Position numbers and translations under genes: made by a program
The notes under the pieces: model-generated
Seen by the model: the letters and a program-made list of their open reading frames with translations, nothing else
What the model was told of the DNA's origin: nothing
The model's database searches: none
Shown here: one piece after another, positions 1 through 6,953 of the stretch
Numbering within the stretch: the first letter of the stretch is position 1
Layout: each line of letters begins with the position of its first letter
IMG/VR virus record: IMGVR_UViG_2541047432_000025
Strand: one strand, 5' to 3'
Length of the DNA stretch: 7,099 nucleotides
Source of the DNA: a virus
Taxonomy: Duplodnaviria > Heunggongvirae > Uroviricota > Caudoviricetes

Positions 1-27
1 CTTACCGGAATTGAAGCAGTTTTTACG

Positions 28-582
28 TCAAAAAGCAATAACTTTTTTCTCTATACCAAAAGCCATAACCATTGGTTTGTACAAAATAAATTCTGCCACC
101 TTTAGCCAATGCTCAATGCGTCTTTCACAGGTTCTTAAACTCCATTCCGGATGTGCATCATTCAGCAATTCAGCCATTTTGCGCTTAGTCATCCCCCGCC
201 CCACATAACGCTGACTCAGAACATTGAGCAGCCCGGGATAACCTGCCAGTACTTCACCAATAACCCTGTCGATTATTAACGCCTCTGAATCGGTACAATG
301 CACCAGCCAGCTTTTTTGCTTGCCGTTGATCATATCCCGCAAAAAAGCCTCAAGTTTAGGTTTGTCCAGACCTGCTTTTTTCATCCTCCGGAGCGCCTCG
401 TTAATTGCCGTTTTTGTCAGCTTTTTAGAGGTCAGCAACTGGTTGAACATATTTCCCGTCTTACCGCCGCCAATATACGACCAGCGCCCCCACATACGTA
501 GTTTCCCCTGAATCCAGACACTTTCCAGCGTGGTGAGACGAAGGTGCTCTCCGCTTTTTCCTGTGTTCGTTGGGTAAATCAT
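28..582 (-). CDS. Putative phage late-gene antiterminator Q-like protein, 184 aa from ATG at 582 (the ORF track extends the frame to a non-ATG start at 702)
   Basis: Long minus-strand ORF. The ATG at 582..580 overlaps the stop of the upstream YbcO-like gene (ATGA) and has AAGGA about 9 nt upstream. It is the last gene of a nin-like chain, where lambdoid phages place Q. W-G-x-W and downstream conserved-looking blocks resemble my recollection of 82/933W-type Q proteins, but this is not verified. Confidence 0.55.
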   Translation of the reverse strand: MIYPTNTGKSGEHLRLTTLESVWIQGKLRMWGRWSYIGGGKTGNMFNQLLTSKKLTKTAINEALRRMKKAGLDKPKLEAFLRDMINGKQKSWLVHCTDSEALIIDRVIGEVLAGYPGLLNVLSQRYVGRGMTKRKMAELLNDAHPEWSLRTCERRIEHWLKVAEFILYKPMVMAFGIEKKVIAF

Positions 583-869
583 AAATAACCGTCCTTTCTC
601 CAGATCTCTTGTGTGCGAAAAACACCTTCTGCATGCATCAGGCGCAATTCTTCTTTGGTGTAATCGCTGGTTTTTACTCTCCCGTCGATTAAATCGTGGC
701 ATGAGTTACAGGCAATCGCTGCCTGCATATCGTGTGGCTTTATCGCTGTTCCGCACGTTCCCGCCAGCCTGTAATGCGCCAGCACAGAGGTTTCGGGATT
801 GTGATTGCAGTAGCCAGGGATTCTGATCTGGCATATCTGGCCTTTAGCCGCTTTACGTAAATTCACCAT
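579..869 (-). CDS. ybcO: YbcO-like DUF1364 prophage protein (96 aa)
   Basis: 96-aa ORF with LRKAAKGQ-C-IRIPG-CN-NPETSVLAH near the N-terminus and IACNSCHD further on, matching the remembered E. coli DLP12 YbcO pattern. ATG at 869..867 overlaps the upstream stop (TAATG); GGAG lies about 8 nt upstream. Confidence 0.7.
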   Translation of the reverse strand: MVNLRKAAKGQICQIRIPGYCNHNPETSVLAHYRLAGTCGTAIKPHDMQAAIACNSCHDLIDGRVKTSDYTKEELRLMHAEGVFRTQEIWRKDGYL

Positions 870-1468
870 TACGCAAACTCCAGTAGTTGTGCGGCCACAT
901 TTTCAACTTCCTCCTGAGAGGAGAATTTACGGAACAGAATCCAGTTCCACAGCACATTCAGTACAGATTTATAAACCTGCTGAAACTCGACTTCGTCCAT
1001 ATTCGCAAAAGCGATGGATTTTGCCCGACGCCCACGGCTACCGTCCGGATAAATATGCTCGGTGTAAAATCCGGCCTGAATGGTTACCCACTCGCGGAAA
1101 GCCTCAAACGACTTTAGCAACGCCGTATCCCGGGTTCTACGAGTCGCAACGGTGTTAAGGTATTGCTCTGCGGCATCACTCAGGGCTGGCGTGTGTTCCC
1201 GACCAACTGATTCGCACAGGTAATCAACGAAACCAGACAGCAGTTCTCGTTCGCGAGGCGTGATCGCCCCACCGACCGGAGTCCAGTAATCGAATCCCAG
1301 TTGCAGGAGTTTGAAAAAACGCTTGTGGAATGCGTAGTTACGCACACGCTTAAAATCTGCGTGTATCCACTCACCTATTTTGATTTGATGCAGAAAATCG
1401 CAACTCTCCGGCGTCGCCGGGAGAAGTAAACCAGAAGAAGTTTGTTTGACCAGTTGTATATGCGCCAT
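869..1468 (-). CDS. Conserved lambdoid nin-region protein, DUF1367-like (199 aa)
   Basis: 199-aa ORF with ATG at 1468..1466 and phage-like GC. It sits immediately upstream of, and is translationally coupled to, the YbcO-like gene. The family name is from memory of the usual DUF1367/DUF1364 adjacency. Confidence 0.55.
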   Translation of the reverse strand: MAHIQLVKQTSSGLLLPATPESCDFLHQIKIGEWIHADFKRVRNYAFHKRFFKLLQLGFDYWTPVGGAITPRERELLSGFVDYLCESVGREHTPALSDAAEQYLNTVATRRTRDTALLKSFEAFREWVTIQAGFYTEHIYPDGSRGRRAKSIAFANMDEVEFQQVYKSVLNVLWNWILFRKFSSQEEVENVAAQLLEFA

Positions 1469-1887
1469 TTCTCAATCTCTCGATGGCGCAGTGCAGCAGA
1501 TGCCAGTTGTTCAAGCTAGCACGCAAATTGTAAACCAGAATGCCAGGAAAAAACAAAACCCGCCGAAGCTGGTTGTGTGCGGTTGCGTTGAAGTCTCCTA
1601 GCCAAAGAGTAGCGGTGACCACTCCCCGCCGATAATCTTAGTTGTTTAATTTCGTAAGCTAACTAGGCTAAAAGCTCTCTGTTGTCTGCCTGTTGTACAA
1701 TTAACAAAATGAACAACGAACTAGATATACCAACGCCAGAATGGTGCAACAAATCCCAAACAACACAGCAATGCAACAATAACATATGTTATTTTCCTCT
1801 CACGGGATTCAGTCCTGAATTCTCATAAAGCTAATCTTTTTTTAAAAACATACTGTTAGATCACATGCACTTTCTTTCTTAACATCG

Positions 1888-1915
1888 TTGACTTCGCATG
1901 CGAAGCGTTTAAAAT
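1888..1915 (+). promoter_or_regulatory. Sigma70-type promoter for the GHKL-ATPase operon, with a palindromic candidate operator in the spacer
   Basis: -35 TTGACT (1888-1893), 16-nt spacer, -10 TAAAAT (1910-1915). The spacer holds the perfect 14-bp palindrome CTTCGCATGCGAAG (1892-1905). An A/T tract lies upstream near 1830-1850. The ATG at 1968 is preceded by a weak GAGAG Shine-Dalgarno. Confidence 0.5.
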
Positions 1916-1967
1916 CAACAATTTGCACTTAAGGTATTTATTTTCCCAAACACATAGAGAGTAAATT

Positions 1968-3359
1968 ATGACTGAGAACACGACTCCAACAGCAGACTTT
2001 AGTCCTAGTAAAAGATTTTTTGTAAGTATGCTAACTCGAGATATCGACTTAAACGATGCCATACTTGATCTGCTTGATAACTGCGTCGATGGGGCTTTAC
2101 GTACAATAAAAGACACAAAAAAAACTTCAAAACCATATGAAGGATTTTATGCGAAACTTACGATTAATAAAGATGTCTTTATTATAGAAGACAATTGCGG
2201 AGGTATCCCTAAAAGCTTCCGAGAATATGCTTTTAAAATGGGACGACCCCATCAAAAAGAAGAAGAAAATGAAGGCACCGTTGGCGTCTATGGTATTGGT
2301 ATGAAAAGAGCCATTTTTAAAATGGGTAGAGATTGCTCAATACAATCGAATAATCCCGATGGCGCATTCACTGTAGATATAACACCTGATTGGATCGATG
2401 GTGATGGTTGGAAAATACCGATGCACGAGAGTGACTATGATAACAAAAATCCAACAGGCACAACTATAGAGATAAAAAAACTCCATTCTAATGTGGCACA
2501 AAAATTTAATGAGAGCACATATCTTACTGATCTCTTTTTACAGATAAAACACTCATTGTCATTTATTATTCAAAAAGGATTTAAAATAGAATTAAATGGA
2601 GTTGTTGTTGAACATAATCCGATTAACATCATAACTGATCATTCTAAAATAGAACCATACATATATAAAGCTAAAATAGACGATGTTGATATCGATTTAG
2701 TTGTTGGCTTCTATAAAAATTTAGAAGATGACAATGATGATGTTTTAGAAAAAAGGAGTTCTGATGATGCTGGATGGACTGTCATTTGCAATGACCGCGT
2801 TGTTCTATATTGTGATAAGACACATCTCACAGGTTGGGGCTTTGCTAATGTACCAAGGTTTCATACCCAATTTATAGCAATTTCTGGGGTTGTTCGCTTT
2901 ACCAGTAAAAACCCAGAAAAATTACCAATAACAACAACGAAACGAGGTGTCGATCTTAGTTCTACATTGTACAATGATGTACGAAATAAAATGATTGAAG
3001 GGATGATGCATTTTATTCGATTCACCAATCAGTGGAAAGGTGAGCATCTTGAAGAAGGGAAAAAATTACTTAAGTCAGCTCAGTCACATGAAGCTCAATC
3101 TTTATTTGAAATTACCCCACAATCAACTCCAGAAGATAAAAAAAATAACTGGTCCAACCCTAATAGAAACAAAAATGAGTGGCGATATACACCTAAGCTG
3201 CCTACCCCAGTAAAAAAAAGCTCTACTGTACGAATAATCTTCACCAGAGAGAAAGAAGATGTTAAAATTTTATCTAAATATTTCTTTGGACATGAAGATG
3301 CTAGCGCTTCTGATGTGGGGATGCAATGCTTTGATACGGTGATTGAAGAGGTGAAGTGA
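1968..3359 (+). CDS. GHKL (Bergerat-fold, MutL/MORC-like) ATPase domain protein, 463 aa
   Basis: N-box DLLDNCVDGA (D34-x3-N38-x2-D41, nt about 2067-2096), G1 box IEDNCGGIP (nt 2190-2207), G2 box GVYGIGMKRA (nt 2283-2300) and a GTTIEI motif about 50 aa later, in canonical GHKL order. The C-terminal 260 aa or so has no motif I recognise. Stop TGA at 3357-3359 overlaps the next start. Confidence 0.85.
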   Translation: MTENTTPTADFSPSKRFFVSMLTRDIDLNDAILDLLDNCVDGALRTIKDTKKTSKPYEGFYAKLTINKDVFIIEDNCGGIPKSFREYAFKMGRPHQKEEENEGTVGVYGIGMKRAIFKMGRDCSIQSNNPDGAFTVDITPDWIDGDGWKIPMHESDYDNKNPTGTTIEIKKLHSNVAQKFNESTYLTDLFLQIKHSLSFIIQKGFKIELNGVVVEHNPINIITDHSKIEPYIYKAKIDDVDIDLVVGFYKNLEDDNDDVLEKRSSDDAGWTVICNDRVVLYCDKTHLTGWGFANVPRFHTQFIAISGVVRFTSKNPEKLPITTTKRGVDLSSTLYNDVRNKMIEGMMHFIRFTNQWKGEHLEEGKKLLKSAQSHEAQSLFEITPQSTPEDKKNNWSNPNRNKNEWRYTPKLPTPVKKSSTVRIIFTREKEDVKILSKYFFGHEDASASDVGMQCFDTVIEEVK

Positions 3360-4348
3360 TGTCTGGACAATACATTCCCTATCACTTAAGGCATAATAAG
3401 TCTATTGATAGAGAGATTTTTCTCGAAAGCCTAAACCTCTTAAGCAAAAGACTAAATATTCAAGAATATACATATATAGGTTTTGGTGGTCCGATGCTTG
3501 AAGATTTTAGAATCATGCATAATCGTATCGCTCTTTCTGATATGATTTCTCTCGAAGAACAAGAGTCTACTCACATCAGACAAAAATATAATTTGCCTTA
3601 TAATTGTATTGATTGTAAGCTAATATCAGCTCATGACTTTATTCTTGATTATAGTTTTTCTAAACCATCAATAACATGGTTAGACTATGCCTCCCCGAAA
3701 AAAATACAAACGGATCTAGATGATATACACTTACTAAGTACTAAAGTAAGCTCTTTTGATATTTTGAAGGTCACCTTCCCCATAAATCCTAGTTCTTATT
3801 ACCAACGTAGAGTTGGAGAAAGTTTAGATATTTTTAAAGAAGCTTTTATTAATTCATTAAAATCATTGCTTGGGAAAAAGTATCTTGATTTTAATCTTCA
3901 GATATCAAATGCAGATCTTTCAGATCGTAAGATTAAAGCTCTTTTAATACGAATTATTACAAACGCTTTTAGATCAGCAATAGAACGTGGTCTTTCAGGA
4001 CGTAAGGATAAGATTCAGTATTACCCATTATCCTTAAATCAATATAATGATGGCAGTCATACCATGTTGACAATATCAGGTTTTTTCTCCTCAGAACAAG
4101 AATATATAGAGTTATCTAAGGCATGCGACCTTTCTAACTGGCAATTTTATTCAACAAATTGGGAAGACGTGCAAGAAATAGCAATACCAACACTAACAAT
4201 TAAAGAAAAGATAAATTTAGATAGTAAACTGCCTGATAAAGAAGCATATCAGGCAGCCGCTGAAGAGTTCTCTTTAAACGAAAATGAACGGGATAACTAT
4301 TATAAATACTATAGGTTATACCCTAACTTCCAAAGAATTATGGTTTAA
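3359..4348 (+). CDS. Hypothetical protein, translationally coupled partner of the GHKL ATPase (329 aa from ATG 3359; ORF track lists GTG at 3356)
   Basis: ATG at 3359 overlaps the upstream TGA (TGATG), with GAGGTG Shine-Dalgarno at 3347-3352. Uninterrupted 330-codon frame, K/I/L/S-rich as expected for an AT-rich gene. No catalytic motif identified by eye. Confidence 0.8.
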   Translation: MSGQYIPYHLRHNKSIDREIFLESLNLLSKRLNIQEYTYIGFGGPMLEDFRIMHNRIALSDMISLEEQESTHIRQKYNLPYNCIDCKLISAHDFILDYSFSKPSITWLDYASPKKIQTDLDDIHLLSTKVSSFDILKVTFPINPSSYYQRRVGESLDIFKEAFINSLKSLLGKKYLDFNLQISNADLSDRKIKALLIRIITNAFRSAIERGLSGRKDKIQYYPLSLNQYNDGSHTMLTISGFFSSEQEYIELSKACDLSNWQFYSTNWEDVQEIAIPTLTIKEKINLDSKLPDKEAYQAAAEEFSLNENERDNYYKYYRLYPNFQRIMV

Positions 4349-5467
4349 ATATTCGGGCTGTACTCTTTTATTTAATAAATTGTACAGCCCCTTTAATATA
4401 TATTCAGCAACTATTGGTGACACGCTATTTCCTATTTGTCTGAAACTATGCCATTTAGTTACATGAAAGCGAAACCAATCAGGGAAGCCTTGTAATCTAG
4501 CAGCTTCTCTTGGTGTAATCACTCTTGGATGATAAGGGTGGATCGGCCTGACGGCTTGAAAGCTTCCTTTATCTCTAGCGGTTCCCGCCCTTAAAGTCGG
4601 GCAAAAACCATTTGGATCTAATCTTGTAGATCTTGAAATTTTATCAGTTTCCCCAAAAGATAAGGAAGCATAACGCTCTTGGACGATTTTGCTATGTAAT
4701 GTTCCGGTACATCCAGATATGATATTATTTTTTAACTTAGCGATCGATTCTGTATCACCAACATTCCGAGGGATCTGCCCCCATAATTTTTCATAAAATC
4801 CCCCTTTTCGATCTTTTTTAATTGTTCGCCAACTCTCAGAGTCTGATTGCCAATTGGCATCGATAATATCTGGTAATCCATACAAAGCATCTTTTACAGT
4901 AACCGGATCAATCATTTTAGGCATAAATACTTCATCTGAAATATCAAGCTTCAATGATTTTTTTACACCGATAAAAAAATATCTAGTTCGAATAGTTGGA
5001 GCACCATAATCAGATGCTTTTACCTTGATGGGATCAAGAATATCATAATCACCGCTAACCAAATTAAATGCTTTATTTCTAATGCCAGAATATTTCTCTT
5101 GCATAATACCTGGAACATTTTCTGCCAAAAAGAATAATGGCTGTAATTCTGATACTAAACGGTAGAAATGCATGTAAAGCTGATTCCTGCTATCATCAGG
5201 ATTCCCCTTGCCTATTGAACTAAATCCTTGGCACGGAGGACCGCCAATAATACCATCTATGGGCATATCGTTTTTAAAAAAACCCTTAATTATTTCTGCA
5301 TTTAGTAAAGAAACATCTTCTTGGACGTGCAAACTTCTTGGAAAATTAATTGCGTGAGTATTAATAGCATGTTGATCAATTTCAACTGCCATTTTAACAT
5401 CAAATCCAGCACGTGCAGCACCAAGACTTAGACCTCCAACGCCAGAAAACAAATCTATTACATTCAT
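4316..5467 (-). CDS. DNA cytosine-5 methyltransferase, Dcm-family (383 aa)
   Basis: Canonical m5C-MTase motifs in order: I DLFSGVGG (FxGxGG), IV GGPPCQGFS with catalytic Cys79 (nt 5233..5231), VI FLAENVPG (ENV), VIII-like APTIRTRYFFIG, IX ITPREAARLQGFPDWFRF, X GNSVSP. A variable target-recognition region of about 150 aa lies between VIII and IX. The 3' end overlaps the partner gene by 33 bp. Confidence 0.9.
   Translation of the reverse strand: MNVIDLFSGVGGLSLGAARAGFDVKMAVEIDQHAINTHAINFPRSLHVQEDVSLLNAEIIKGFFKNDMPIDGIIGGPPCQGFSSIGKGNPDDSRNQLYMHFYRLVSELQPLFFLAENVPGIMQEKYSGIRNKAFNLVSGDYDILDPIKVKASDYGAPTIRTRYFFIGVKKSLKLDISDEVFMPKMIDPVTVKDALYGLPDIIDANWQSDSESWRTIKKDRKGGFYEKLWGQIPRNVGDTESIAKLKNNIISGCTGTLHSKIVQERYASLSFGETDKISRSTRLDPNGFCPTLRAGTARDKGSFQAVRPIHPYHPRVITPREAARLQGFPDWFRFHVTKWHSFRQIGNSVSPIVAEYILKGLYNLLNKRVQPEYLNHNSLEVRV
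4355..4390 (+). terminator. Possible stem-loop terminator for the ATPase-partner operon, embedded in the 3' coding end of the convergent methyltransferase
   Basis: GGGCTGTAC (4355-4363) pairs with GTACAGCCC (4382-4390) as a 9-bp stem around an AT-rich 18-nt loop, 7 nt after the partner stop codon. The downstream run CTTTAATATATATT is only moderately T-rich. Confidence 0.25.
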
Positions 5468-5499
5468 ATAGTTGCAACGTCTCTTATTAGTTTCTATGT

Positions 5500-5529
5500 A
5501 TTATAACACAACTGTTCTTGATGTTTTAA
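5500..5529 (-). promoter_or_regulatory. Putative extended -10 promoter for the methyltransferase
   Basis: On the minus strand TGTTATAAT (plus coordinates 5508..5500) is an extended -10 with a consensus TATAAT; a weak -35 (TAAAAC/TTAAAA) lies 17-18 nt upstream. It sits about 33 nt upstream of the MTase ATG at 5467. The 8-bp palindrome GTTGCAAC (5471-5478) is in the leader. Confidence 0.4.
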
Positions 5530-5729
5530 CCCCATAAGATAACCTCATAAAGGCTATCCCTTGAAAATACCGGATCGCATAAATTTAATCTTTCAAAACT
5601 ACTTGTCTATTAATCGAGCAATTTAAGGTTGTTTTAGTCATGTCGATACCGACATAGTTAACTAAACCCATTTCATCGTCCAACAAATGGGGGTAATACA
5701 CTTTGATTTATAGTCGGGTGGGTTTTTCT

Positions 5730-5765
5730 CTATCTGCCTTTGGTGTTCATGCCCAAGGCAGATAG
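5730..5765. repeat. Imperfect inverted repeat (stem-loop) in the spacer between cargo and phage genes
   Basis: CTATCTGCCTTTGG (5730-5743) and CCAAGGCAGATAG (5753-5765) form a stem of about 12-13 bp with one bulge around a 9-nt loop. There is no U-tract on either strand, so it is not a classical intrinsic terminator. Confidence 0.3.
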
Positions 5766-5898
5766 CCTCAAGCACCCGCAGCAATTCTACTTAACTCTCC
5801 TTTTCCCGCAAACCGTTTTTATCTCCAGCGACAAATCGAATACACAACCAGCACCACCGCCATTACTGTTCCTACATTTGCGAATGCTTCAGGCCAGG

Positions 5899-6294
5899 TC
5901 ATTGATTCACCTTCTGCTCAATATTTTTAAGGTCATTTTCCGCATACAGTATTGCAGTTCTTGCTGCCCGCAACCGTGCTTTGGTGTTCTTTTCTTCACG
6001 CTCGAGGCTGGCAACAGATTCTCGGAGCTGATCGTGTCTGTTATGAAGCTGTCTAATCTCTCTCACCACAGCCTCACCATCGTTCGCACACCGCAGAACA
6101 TACTGAAAAGGGTCCACAACACATCCGCACTGCAAGCACAGGATAACGTGATCCTGTTCATGAACCTCAATGGCCCGATGCTTACAGCTCTGTTGTGTGT
6201 AGTTTTTTCTGCCAGTTACTGTAATGTTCAGCAGCTTCTCTTCATCGCGCTTTGGCTGCACCAGTGTGATGATATTATCGCCTTCATTTTCCAT
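5899..6294 (-). CDS. Hypothetical phage protein with a Cys/His cluster (possible zinc ribbon) and charged C-terminal helix, 131 aa from ATG 6294 (ORF track lists GTG at 6369)
   Basis: ATG at 6294..6292 overlaps the upstream stop (TGATG) and has a strong AGGAGG Shine-Dalgarno 7 nt upstream. Contains C-x-H...C-x-x-C-x-C (SCKHRAIEVHEQDHVILCLQCGCV) and a C-terminal region rich in R/E/K/L. Confidence 0.7.
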   Translation of the reverse strand: MENEGDNIITLVQPKRDEEKLLNITVTGRKNYTQQSCKHRAIEVHEQDHVILCLQCGCVVDPFQYVLRCANDGEAVVREIRQLHNRHDQLRESVASLEREEKNTKARLRAARTAILYAENDLKNIEQKVNQ

Positions 6295-6953
6295 CAGTTC
6301 ACCTCCTGCGGCGGTTCTGGTAGCGGCATCCAGTGTGACGGTTTCCACGACGCACCAGGAATTATCCACCCATCATTAGCGTCAGGATGCCCCGGGATGT
6401 AAGTCGCCCACTTCATTCGCCAGTCACCTTTCCTGTCAAACTCCACGGCAACAAGAACGGCTGTTTTGGTATCCGGCATTCGCTCACTACAACTTATCCA
6501 ACCATCCGGAGTTACCGGAGAGTTGCCAGACAGCGCATTCTGCAACCGTTCCAGCTTAACGTATTCCTGAACCCTGTTTCCGTCGCACGCCTGAAGCCAT
6601 TGCTCAGCCTTTTGCGCATCAGTGTGAAAGGCACAAGTGCGACCGTCATCAAATTGCATTTCGTAGAGGTTAGCAATCTGTTCAAACTGCGTGTGTGGCA
6701 ACTTGTAAGTTTGGCTTACGAGTTCGGCTTCCAGTTCTGCTATGCGCTTCTCTGATGCTTCAAGTAACGCCTGCTTATCGCGTAGCGCTTCTTCCAGTTC
6801 AGCAACATGGCATTCACTATCAATAAGGTTGTTCTCTGCTGCTCCCAGCTCAACTCTCAGCTTCCCAACCGTAAGCGCAATCTCCTCGTTCTCCTGGTCG
6901 CGGCGTTTGATGTATTGCTGGTTTCTTTCCCGTTCATCCAGCAGTTCCAGCAC
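6294..6953 (-). CDS. Phage protein with coiled-coil-like N-terminal half and C-terminal DUF551-like domain (219 aa, GTG start)
   Basis: C-terminal segment WISCSERMPD...VLVAVEF...WIIPG...SHWMPLPEPP matches the remembered DUF551 pattern; the N-terminal half is heptad-like and E/L/A/K-rich. The only start near the frame opening is GTG at 6953, with AGAGG about 14 nt upstream; an in-frame stop lies at 7011-7013. Confidence 0.7.
   Translation of the reverse strand: MLELLDERERNQQYIKRRDQENEEIALTVGKLRVELGAAENNLIDSECHVAELEEALRDKQALLEASEKRIAELEAELVSQTYKLPHTQFEQIANLYEMQFDDGRTCAFHTDAQKAEQWLQACDGNRVQEYVKLERLQNALSGNSPVTPDGWISCSERMPDTKTAVLVAVEFDRKGDWRMKWATYIPGHPDANDGWIIPGASWKPSHWMPLPEPPQEVN

Follow-up and report, generated by a model that had tools for sequence, protein, structure and literature searches.

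What is the block of low-GC genes that interrupts the early-right (pR) operon of a lambdoid prophage, and what does it do for the phage or its host? The DNA in which this question arises is IMG/VR record IMGVR_UViG_2541047432_000025 (Caudoviricetes), a stretch of 7,099 nt with eight substantial genes that is called the window throughout. Three of these genes form the cassette considered here, and encode a GHKL+S5 ATPase, a protein of family PF20553 and a C5 DNA methylase. It was found that the cassette has taken the place of the core of a hok/sok type I toxin-antitoxin locus, and that the same three genes occur together in many other genomes. We infer, with a probability of roughly 0.6, that the trio is a restriction-modification-like system carried as a defence or addiction moron.

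An earlier note on this DNA had described positions 1469–5898 as a cargo island between the ead/DUF551 and nin/Q regions of a prophage early operon. This description of the slot was right, as intact relatives share the gene order, and in this class of lambdoid prophage the slot lies in the pR operon between the Ea22/DUF551 genes and ninB-ybcO-Q. The possibility that rearrangement or deletion in the prophage had brought Ea22/DUF551 beside nin/Q was considered and rejected, because intact relatives show the same order downstream of the O/P replication genes. The gene layout also agreed with the note: the phage genes on both sides of the slot are on the minus strand and coupled by mutual overlaps of 1 to 4 nt, and the interior contains a plus-strand operon and a convergent gene. 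In this operon the ATPase gene (1968–3359) and the PF20553 gene (3359–4348) are joined by a TGATG stop/start overlap, and the minus-strand methylase gene (4316–5467) converges on the PF20553 gene with a 33-bp overlap.

Alignment of the window with related prophages, which the note had proposed, revealed the state of the slot in the absence of the cassette and defined the junctions. In cassette-free relatives the slot is occupied by a hok/sok type I toxin-antitoxin locus, and homology between the window and these relatives ends at 1753/1754 and 5719/5720. The foreign insert would thus extend from about 1754 to 5719 (~3.97 kb), which is narrower than 1469–5898 because the ends of hok/sok survive at 1555–1753 and 5720–5777; the boundaries given in the note were too wide by about 285 bp on the left and 180 bp on the right. 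On the left side, 1555–1591 (minus strand) is a remnant of the 3′ stem-loop/terminator of the hok mRNA (CCGC..GCGG followed by a run of T), and 1592–1753 (minus strand) is the remaining 3′ half of a Hok/Gef locus, recognized by alignment to the intact locus L015 of E. coli NRZ103545. Window positions 1555–1753 were 85.5% identical to L015 2464–2663 (Hok/Gef coding sequence 2572–2697), and include a decayed C-terminal hok open reading frame (ORF; ~1663–1753) that ends in NRELLA and a stop, compared to NIELLA and a stop in the intact gene, and in which the start codon and roughly the initial 11 codons are missing. On the right side, 5720–5777 (minus strand) is what remains of the 5′ leader of the hok mRNA, namely its first stem-loop; it matched Rfam RF01794 with 50.2 bits (E 3.5e-9), under the gathering score of 59, whereas the intact neighbour locus scored 107.8 bits. 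The hok promoter region lies between this leader remnant and a 27-amino-acid ORF.

According to these alignments, the cassette replaced about 145 nt of the hok/sok core, in which sok and the mok start were lost with the greater part of the leader, together with approximately the first 11 codons of hok. In lambdoid relatives the hok/sok (Hok/Gef) locus is found in the same slot, and its leader and 3′ end still border the cassette, but the copy in the window is destroyed: it lacks sok, the mok start and the hok start codon, and no intact hok ORF with a mok/sok leader was found in the window. The earlier note had called the edges of the island non-coding; no cassette gene is present there, but the edges are not featureless, as they hold the hok remnants at 1555–1753 and 5720–5777 and the 27-amino-acid ORF at 5821–5902. 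The cassette is flanked by syntenic phage genes and relatives have other content at the site, as is the case for cargo, and the comparisons suggest that hok/sok repeatedly serves as a point of cargo insertion in these prophages. As an insertion it is ordinary prophage cargo, since the nin-region hok/sok site is one at which lambdoid prophages exchange cargo. A search for the terminal inverted or direct repeats of a transposon- or integrase-type insertion found none above chance-level 14-mers, there is no integrase or transposase gene in the window, and no recombinase gene marks the insert. It was also observed that the same hok site in E. coli NRZ103545 (L015 2914–5163) contains genes for two hypothetical proteins and an S8 family peptidase, beside a short Hok/Gef gene.

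The hand-estimated contrast in GC content on which the earlier note relied was reproduced by a computed profile. The GC content of 1469–5898 was 0.359, compared to 0.488 in the flanks, and a two-breakpoint likelihood fit placed the low-GC block at 1631–5715, with a GC content of 0.346 inside and 0.490 outside; the change-point log-likelihood ratio was 74, compared to a maximum of 14.8 in 30 block shuffles. The GC content of third codon positions (GC3) was 0.25–0.27 in the cassette genes and 0.49–0.53 in the phage genes (about 0.25 vs 0.50), and rare codons were twice as frequent in the cassette genes.

The distribution of the cassette in E. coli was evaluated in 5426 complete genomes. The flanks were present in about 3500–4300 of these, and the cassette in 176 (near-complete in 172), mostly O157:H7 and O111, always as a single chromosomal copy with at least 99% identity; window positions 1592–5719 were 100.0% identical to most of the cassette-bearing genomes. 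A megablast search of 50,697 phage records found none with the cassette at the nucleotide level, and tblastn against the phage records found one distant case, Pseudomonas phage PfAC20.

Over positions 1–5902, the window is 99.8% identical to prophage Sp10 of strain Sakai, a region that is called CP-933R of EDL933 in papers and that belongs to a long-sequenced prophage of E. coli O157:H7. The match to Sp10 (Sakai/EDL933) stops at 5902/5903, exactly at a gene boundary, and to the right of it the genes for a 131-amino-acid protein and for Ea22/DUF551 differ from those of Sp10 and match Shiga toxin (Stx) phages. The exact right-hand junction of the window was found in none of the 5426 complete E. 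coli genomes. A break at a gene boundary is as expected from lambdoid mosaicism, and this junction indicates that the identical cassette is present in at least two phage backgrounds.

A diverged cassette was found in the same slot of a lambdoid prophage of Yersinia enterocolitica (loci L010/L011), upstream of DUF1367-YbcO-Q, with 53% amino-acid and 65% nucleotide identity to the cassette of the window and with no detectable hok/sok leader. No methylase gene is called in L010, yet its DNA aligns over the full length of the methylase, and a Mom-like gene is present just downstream of Q in the Yersinia prophage. The presence of this copy in the same slot, which implies a long or repeated association, is the point in favour of regarding the cassette as a conserved native part of the phage family and not as cargo. 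We consider that interpretation to be very improbable, as it is contradicted by the comparisons: the flanking genes are found in more than 3500 E. coli genomes and the cassette in only 176, relatives contain hok/sok or other cargo in the slot, GC3 differs by the values given above, hok remnants are present on both sides, and the trio is found outside phages in many phyla. The finding that the earlier note had named as decisive against cargo, namely that the cassette is a conserved core part of the phage at matching composition, was not obtained, and horizontally acquired cargo in a variable slot is supported by the genome comparisons.

The product of the first cassette gene (1968–3359, plus strand) has a GHKL domain, in which ATP-binding motifs are present, and after it an S5 domain. 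The structures nearest to its predicted model were MORC3, SMCHD1 and MORC2, and the model was nearer to MORC and SMCHD1 than to MutL; a sequence-profile search of the PDB gave only marginal matches, to MORC3/4. In the alignment of the family, the Bergerat-fold motifs are invariant, an Asp is present at the position that we take to be that of the usual general-base Glu of GHKL ATPases, and the conserved S5-domain lysine K325 is invariant and is presumably the usual nucleotide-contacting residue. A C-terminal helical extension of about 130 amino acids had no match to anything. Unlike the eukaryotic MORC and SMCHD1 proteins, to which the sequence identity is only ~15%, the ATPase of the window has no CW, coiled-coil or hinge domain and is encoded in a bacterial operon. 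The family also contains unusually conserved cysteines, with C39 and C77 within the ATP-binding motifs DNCVDG and DNCGG, and C274 and C282 in a GWTxxCNDR...YCD motif of the S5 region.

The second gene (3359–4348, plus strand), translationally coupled to the ATPase gene, encodes a PF20553 ('Methyltransf_35') protein, the model of which (pLDDT 88.8) has the seven-stranded, Rossmann-like fold of a class I S-adenosylmethionine (SAM) methyltransferase. The motif I glycines are conserved in PF20553, as are the motif II acidic residue E67 and the motif IV residue D110 at the end of strand 4 (both at least 95% conserved), and an N-terminal YxxRxNKxxxR motif is conserved over 75 sequences from many phyla. 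The family has 2211 representatives at 50% identity, and there were no domain fusions among the best 150 of the 2211, almost all of which are stand-alone proteins of ~320–350 amino acids (a few are fragments or are ~380 amino acids long). The PF20553 alignment, used as a profile against PDB sequences, gave no match, and a query with the single PF20553 protein against one genome per species found nothing. The name 'O-methyltransferase' that is attached to PF20553 appears to be without backing, in that no substrate evidence for it was found.

The third gene (4316–5467, minus strand) encodes a C5 DNA methylase (Pfam PF00145, 2.6e-61; PADLOC MTase_II, 2e-98) the sequence of which is nearly identical to that of PDB chain 3G7U (E 1.3e-254). 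Its translation contains the catalytic motifs of a DNA methyltransferase intact (FSGVGG, PPCQGFS and ENV). In PADLOC-DB v2.0.0, its only matches were to generic models (MTase_II, DruM and DrmMII). The literature on 3G7U and on 5-methylcytosine (m5C) methylomes of O157 yielded no target site for this methylase.

Relatives of the ATPase number more than 5400 in the database searched, and a scan of species genomes (one genome per species) with the ATPase alignment gave matches in at least 590 of them. Neighbourhoods were counted at 80 sampled ATPase loci. PF20553 is encoded directly downstream of the ATPase in 74 of the 80, and the other six are two contig ends and four cyanobacterial loci with a longer methylase-like gene instead; in the latter (L047, L059, L084 and L086), the ATPase gene is followed by a C5-methylase-like ORF of ~425–466 amino acids, with no PF20553 gene. 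A C5 methylase gene was found within ~2 kb in 72 of the loci, and a Vsr gene in 31. Most often the genes are ordered methylase, ATPase, PF20553, and the convergent arrangement of the window was found in 11 loci. No other flanking family was present in more than five of the 80 loci, there was no recurrent helicase or nuclease gene, and there was no conserved fourth gene. The trio was found in Leptospira, Methylomonas, Gemmatimonadota (where, at locus L014, it is beside a type I HsdR) and Enterobacter, and its three genes stay together in many phyla of bacteria and in at least one archaeon.

A mobile element outside the lambdoid phages also carries the genes. The filamentous Pf phage PfAC20 (PP058144.1, L096 280–3711) encodes, in order, the ATPase, a PF20553-like protein (29% identity to the PF20553 protein of the window) and a cytosine methylase at the accessory end of its genome; a second, small 'DNA cytosine methyltransferase' ORF is located further in. 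At the nucleotide level, the homology of the window with the copies in Enterobacter and Yersinia is confined to the three coding regions, and the GC content of the cassette was lower than that of its flanks in five of six other hosts checked.

The restriction-modification-like reading is preferred because a C5 methylase is strictly linked, Vsr is frequently present, the GC content is low, and the trio is mobile and located in islands and prophages. GHKL+S5 ATPases linked to cytosine methylases and Vsr have been predicted to be components of restriction-modification systems (Iyer et al. 2008, PMC2292703). In the mechanism that we propose, the C5 methylase would mark host and prophage DNA at its target site, and the ATPase, presumably in a complex with its translationally coupled PF20553 partner, would be the second half of the system and act on unmarked DNA. 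The likely action is an ATP-driven clamping or looping of DNA, as in MORC, MutL and topoisomerase ATPase modules, with the PF20553 protein supplying a SAM-dependent catalytic or sensing step. As a result, incoming unmethylated phage or plasmid DNA would be excluded, and loss of the prophage would be penalized as it is by other restriction-modification modules, which is the job of the displaced hok/sok.

Vsr also bears on another possible role, in which the ATPase, acting like MutL, and its partner aid the Vsr-type very-short-patch repair of T:G mismatches that result from deamination at the sites of the methylase. E. coli MutL stimulates Vsr, Vsr adjoins the module in 31 of the 80 loci, and a repair role has been raised for some members of the family (Iyer et al. 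2008, PMC2292703). Nevertheless, most loci are without Vsr, including that of the window, the ATPase model is nearer to MORC/SMCHD1 than to MutL, cyanobacterial ATPase/PF20553 pairs occur without an adjacent methylase, and a conserved partner with a SAM-methyltransferase fold is left unexplained. We therefore regard a repair accessory as quite improbable.

Several results count against a restriction-modification-like system. No nuclease fold or motif was recognized in the three cassette proteins, and none is conserved nearby; there is no cognate restriction endonuclease of the PD-(D/E)xK, HNH, GIY-YIG, PLD or half-pipe type, such as a type II system would have. Eight of the 80 loci have no adjacent methylase (seven cyanobacterial loci with the ATPase/PF20553 pair and one at a contig edge), and such loci weigh against the reading because they are unexpected for a lethal restriction activity. 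Neither the ATPase nor the PF20553 protein matched any PADLOC-DB family at E ≤0.01 or any NCBIfam family, and neither collection has a model for the pair. Finally, promoters were predicted in the window at chance frequency (20 found vs 17.4 expected). The term defence moron in the earlier note was borne out with respect to acquired cargo in a variable prophage slot, but a role in defence or superinfection exclusion was not established, and the defence reading is plausible but unproven.

The absence of a nuclease together with two proteins of methyltransferase fold would be accounted for by a module for modification only, in which the three proteins install one or two DNA modifications that shield phage and host DNA from other restriction systems. 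The cassette would then be anti-restriction or epigenetic cargo, without attack on foreign DNA. This is consistent with the conserved SAM-binding residues of PF20553, with a methylase gene that is co-oriented with the phage operon and so would be boosted on induction, and with the frequent carriage of orphan methylases by phages, to which the Mom-like gene of the Yersinia prophage may be added. We nonetheless think it unlikely, because the strict linkage of three genes, Vsr and defence-island-like contexts such as HsdR in L014 look more like restriction-modification than an orphan methylase, a MORC-type ATP-driven clamp has no obvious role in simple methylation, and the ATPase operon runs antisense to that of the phage. 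Also possible, although we would not expect it, is a methylation-guided immunity or silencing that uses no nuclease, in which the MORC-type clamp and its SAM-dependent partner would entrap or chemically mark DNA that is without the cognate m5C. The system would in that case be a prokaryotic counterpart, and possibly an antecedent, of the MORC/SMCHD1 silencing that is tied to DNA methylation in eukaryotes.

To place the restriction-modification-like reading among described systems, the trio was compared to three of them. The MORC/paraMORC systems (PMC2292703) have in common with it a GHKL+S5 ATPase, a cytosine methylase and often Vsr, as well as mobility and a location in islands and mobile elements, and ATP-driven DNA looping or clamping within restriction-modification has been proposed for them. 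In contrast to these systems, which have SF-II helicases and/or restriction-fold, HNH, TIR or fused nuclease domains, the trio has neither a helicase nor an endonuclease, and its sole conserved partner is the protein with a class I methyltransferase fold; furthermore, the alignment of the ATPase family of the window does not show conservation of ExxxH, a strongly conserved motif of paraMORC2. Type II systems carried as prophage morons, such as the PstI-like M.EcoGIII system of Stx phages (PMC6602927), resemble the cassette in tight linkage, low GC content, patchy distribution and a possible function in both defence and addiction, and a convergent layout is common in type II systems. However, the cassette has no identifiable endonuclease, and the place of this enzyme is taken by the ATPase and methyltransferase-fold pair. 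A GHKL ATPase is also the engine of the anti-phage system GHKL-Shedu/paraMORC3 (VcSduA; PMC12137116), but VcSduA consists of one polypeptide that ends in a PD-(D/E)xK (DUF4263) nuclease, with no accompanying methylase, whereas the ATPase of the window has a helical C-terminal extension and no match in PADLOC. No characterization of or experiment on the ATPase/PF20553 pair was found in the literature on PF20553 and on bacterial or prokaryotic MORC proteins, and the cassette seems to be an uncharacterized variant of MORC-type restriction-modification-like systems that has apparently never been tested.

With respect to expression, published arrays and proteomics detect cassette products in lysogens, and the ECs1954 and ECs1955 transcripts vary with growth phase (PMC2241611). 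Each transcription unit has an upstream region that lies within the cassette, and candidate promoters were located there by a consensus scan only. Upstream of the ATPase operon (1754–1967, plus strand) a sigma-70-like sequence, TTGACT-16-TAAAAT, is present at 1888–1915, in a region that is not conserved with the Enterobacter or Yersinia cassettes. Upstream of the methylase gene (5468–5719, minus strand) is the best sigma-70-like site of the window, TTAAAA-18-TG-TATAAT at 5529–5500. From the orientation of the genes, we propose that pR read-through on induction would increase transcription of the methylase gene and produce antisense transcription through the ATPase operon. A short perfect palindrome, ATGTCG-ATAC-CGACAT, was noticed at 5640–5655 in the upstream region of the methylase gene, and may be an operator or may have arisen by chance. 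A match to Rfam rli31 at 3820–3921 (E 0.45) was set aside as a chance match within AT-rich coding DNA.

The other genes of the window, all on the minus strand, belong to the phage backbone. Downstream of the slot, the first conserved phage gene encodes a DUF1367/NinB-Orf family protein (869–1468; Pfam PF07105, 6.4e-98; phrog_319), followed by a gene for a YbcO/DUF1364 nin-region protein (579–869; PF07102, 5e-43) that overlaps both neighbours and by a gene for a Q-like antiterminator (DUF1133/Phage_antitermQ; 28–582; PF06576, 1.7e-105; annotated as ECs_1958). The mechanical ORF of the Q-like gene extends to 702, which is 120 nt further upstream and overlaps YbcO; the start annotated in Sakai/EDL933 is 582, and a start at this position gives the usual 4-nt coupling with YbcO. 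On the other side of the slot are genes for an Ea22-like/DUF551 protein (6294–6953; PF04448, 2.3e-21; PF13935, 5.3e-13) and a 131-amino-acid phage protein (5899–6294; phrog_1621; annotated as WP_000426669.1 in relatives), the mechanical ORF of which extends to 6369. The 27-amino-acid hydrophobic ORF (5821–5902; MTWPEAFANVGTVMAVVLVVYSICRWR) has an ATG that overlaps the stop of the gene upstream; relatives have it too, as a conserved ORF, and Sp10 retains it. It is a part of the phage backbone and is coupled to this upstream gene.

The interest of this locus is in the cargo and not in the insertion: a widespread trio with no recognizable nuclease, not in the standard defence catalogue, that is recurrent cargo of unrelated prophages. 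Its natural occurrence in E. coli and the crystal structure of the methylase offer a practical entry point. Study of the trio could reveal the way in which GHKL/MORC engines work together with bacterial DNA methylation, and whether a system that resembles restriction can operate in the absence of a classical endonuclease. If the silencing interpretation were true, such a system would be located in a genetically tractable prophage of E. coli.

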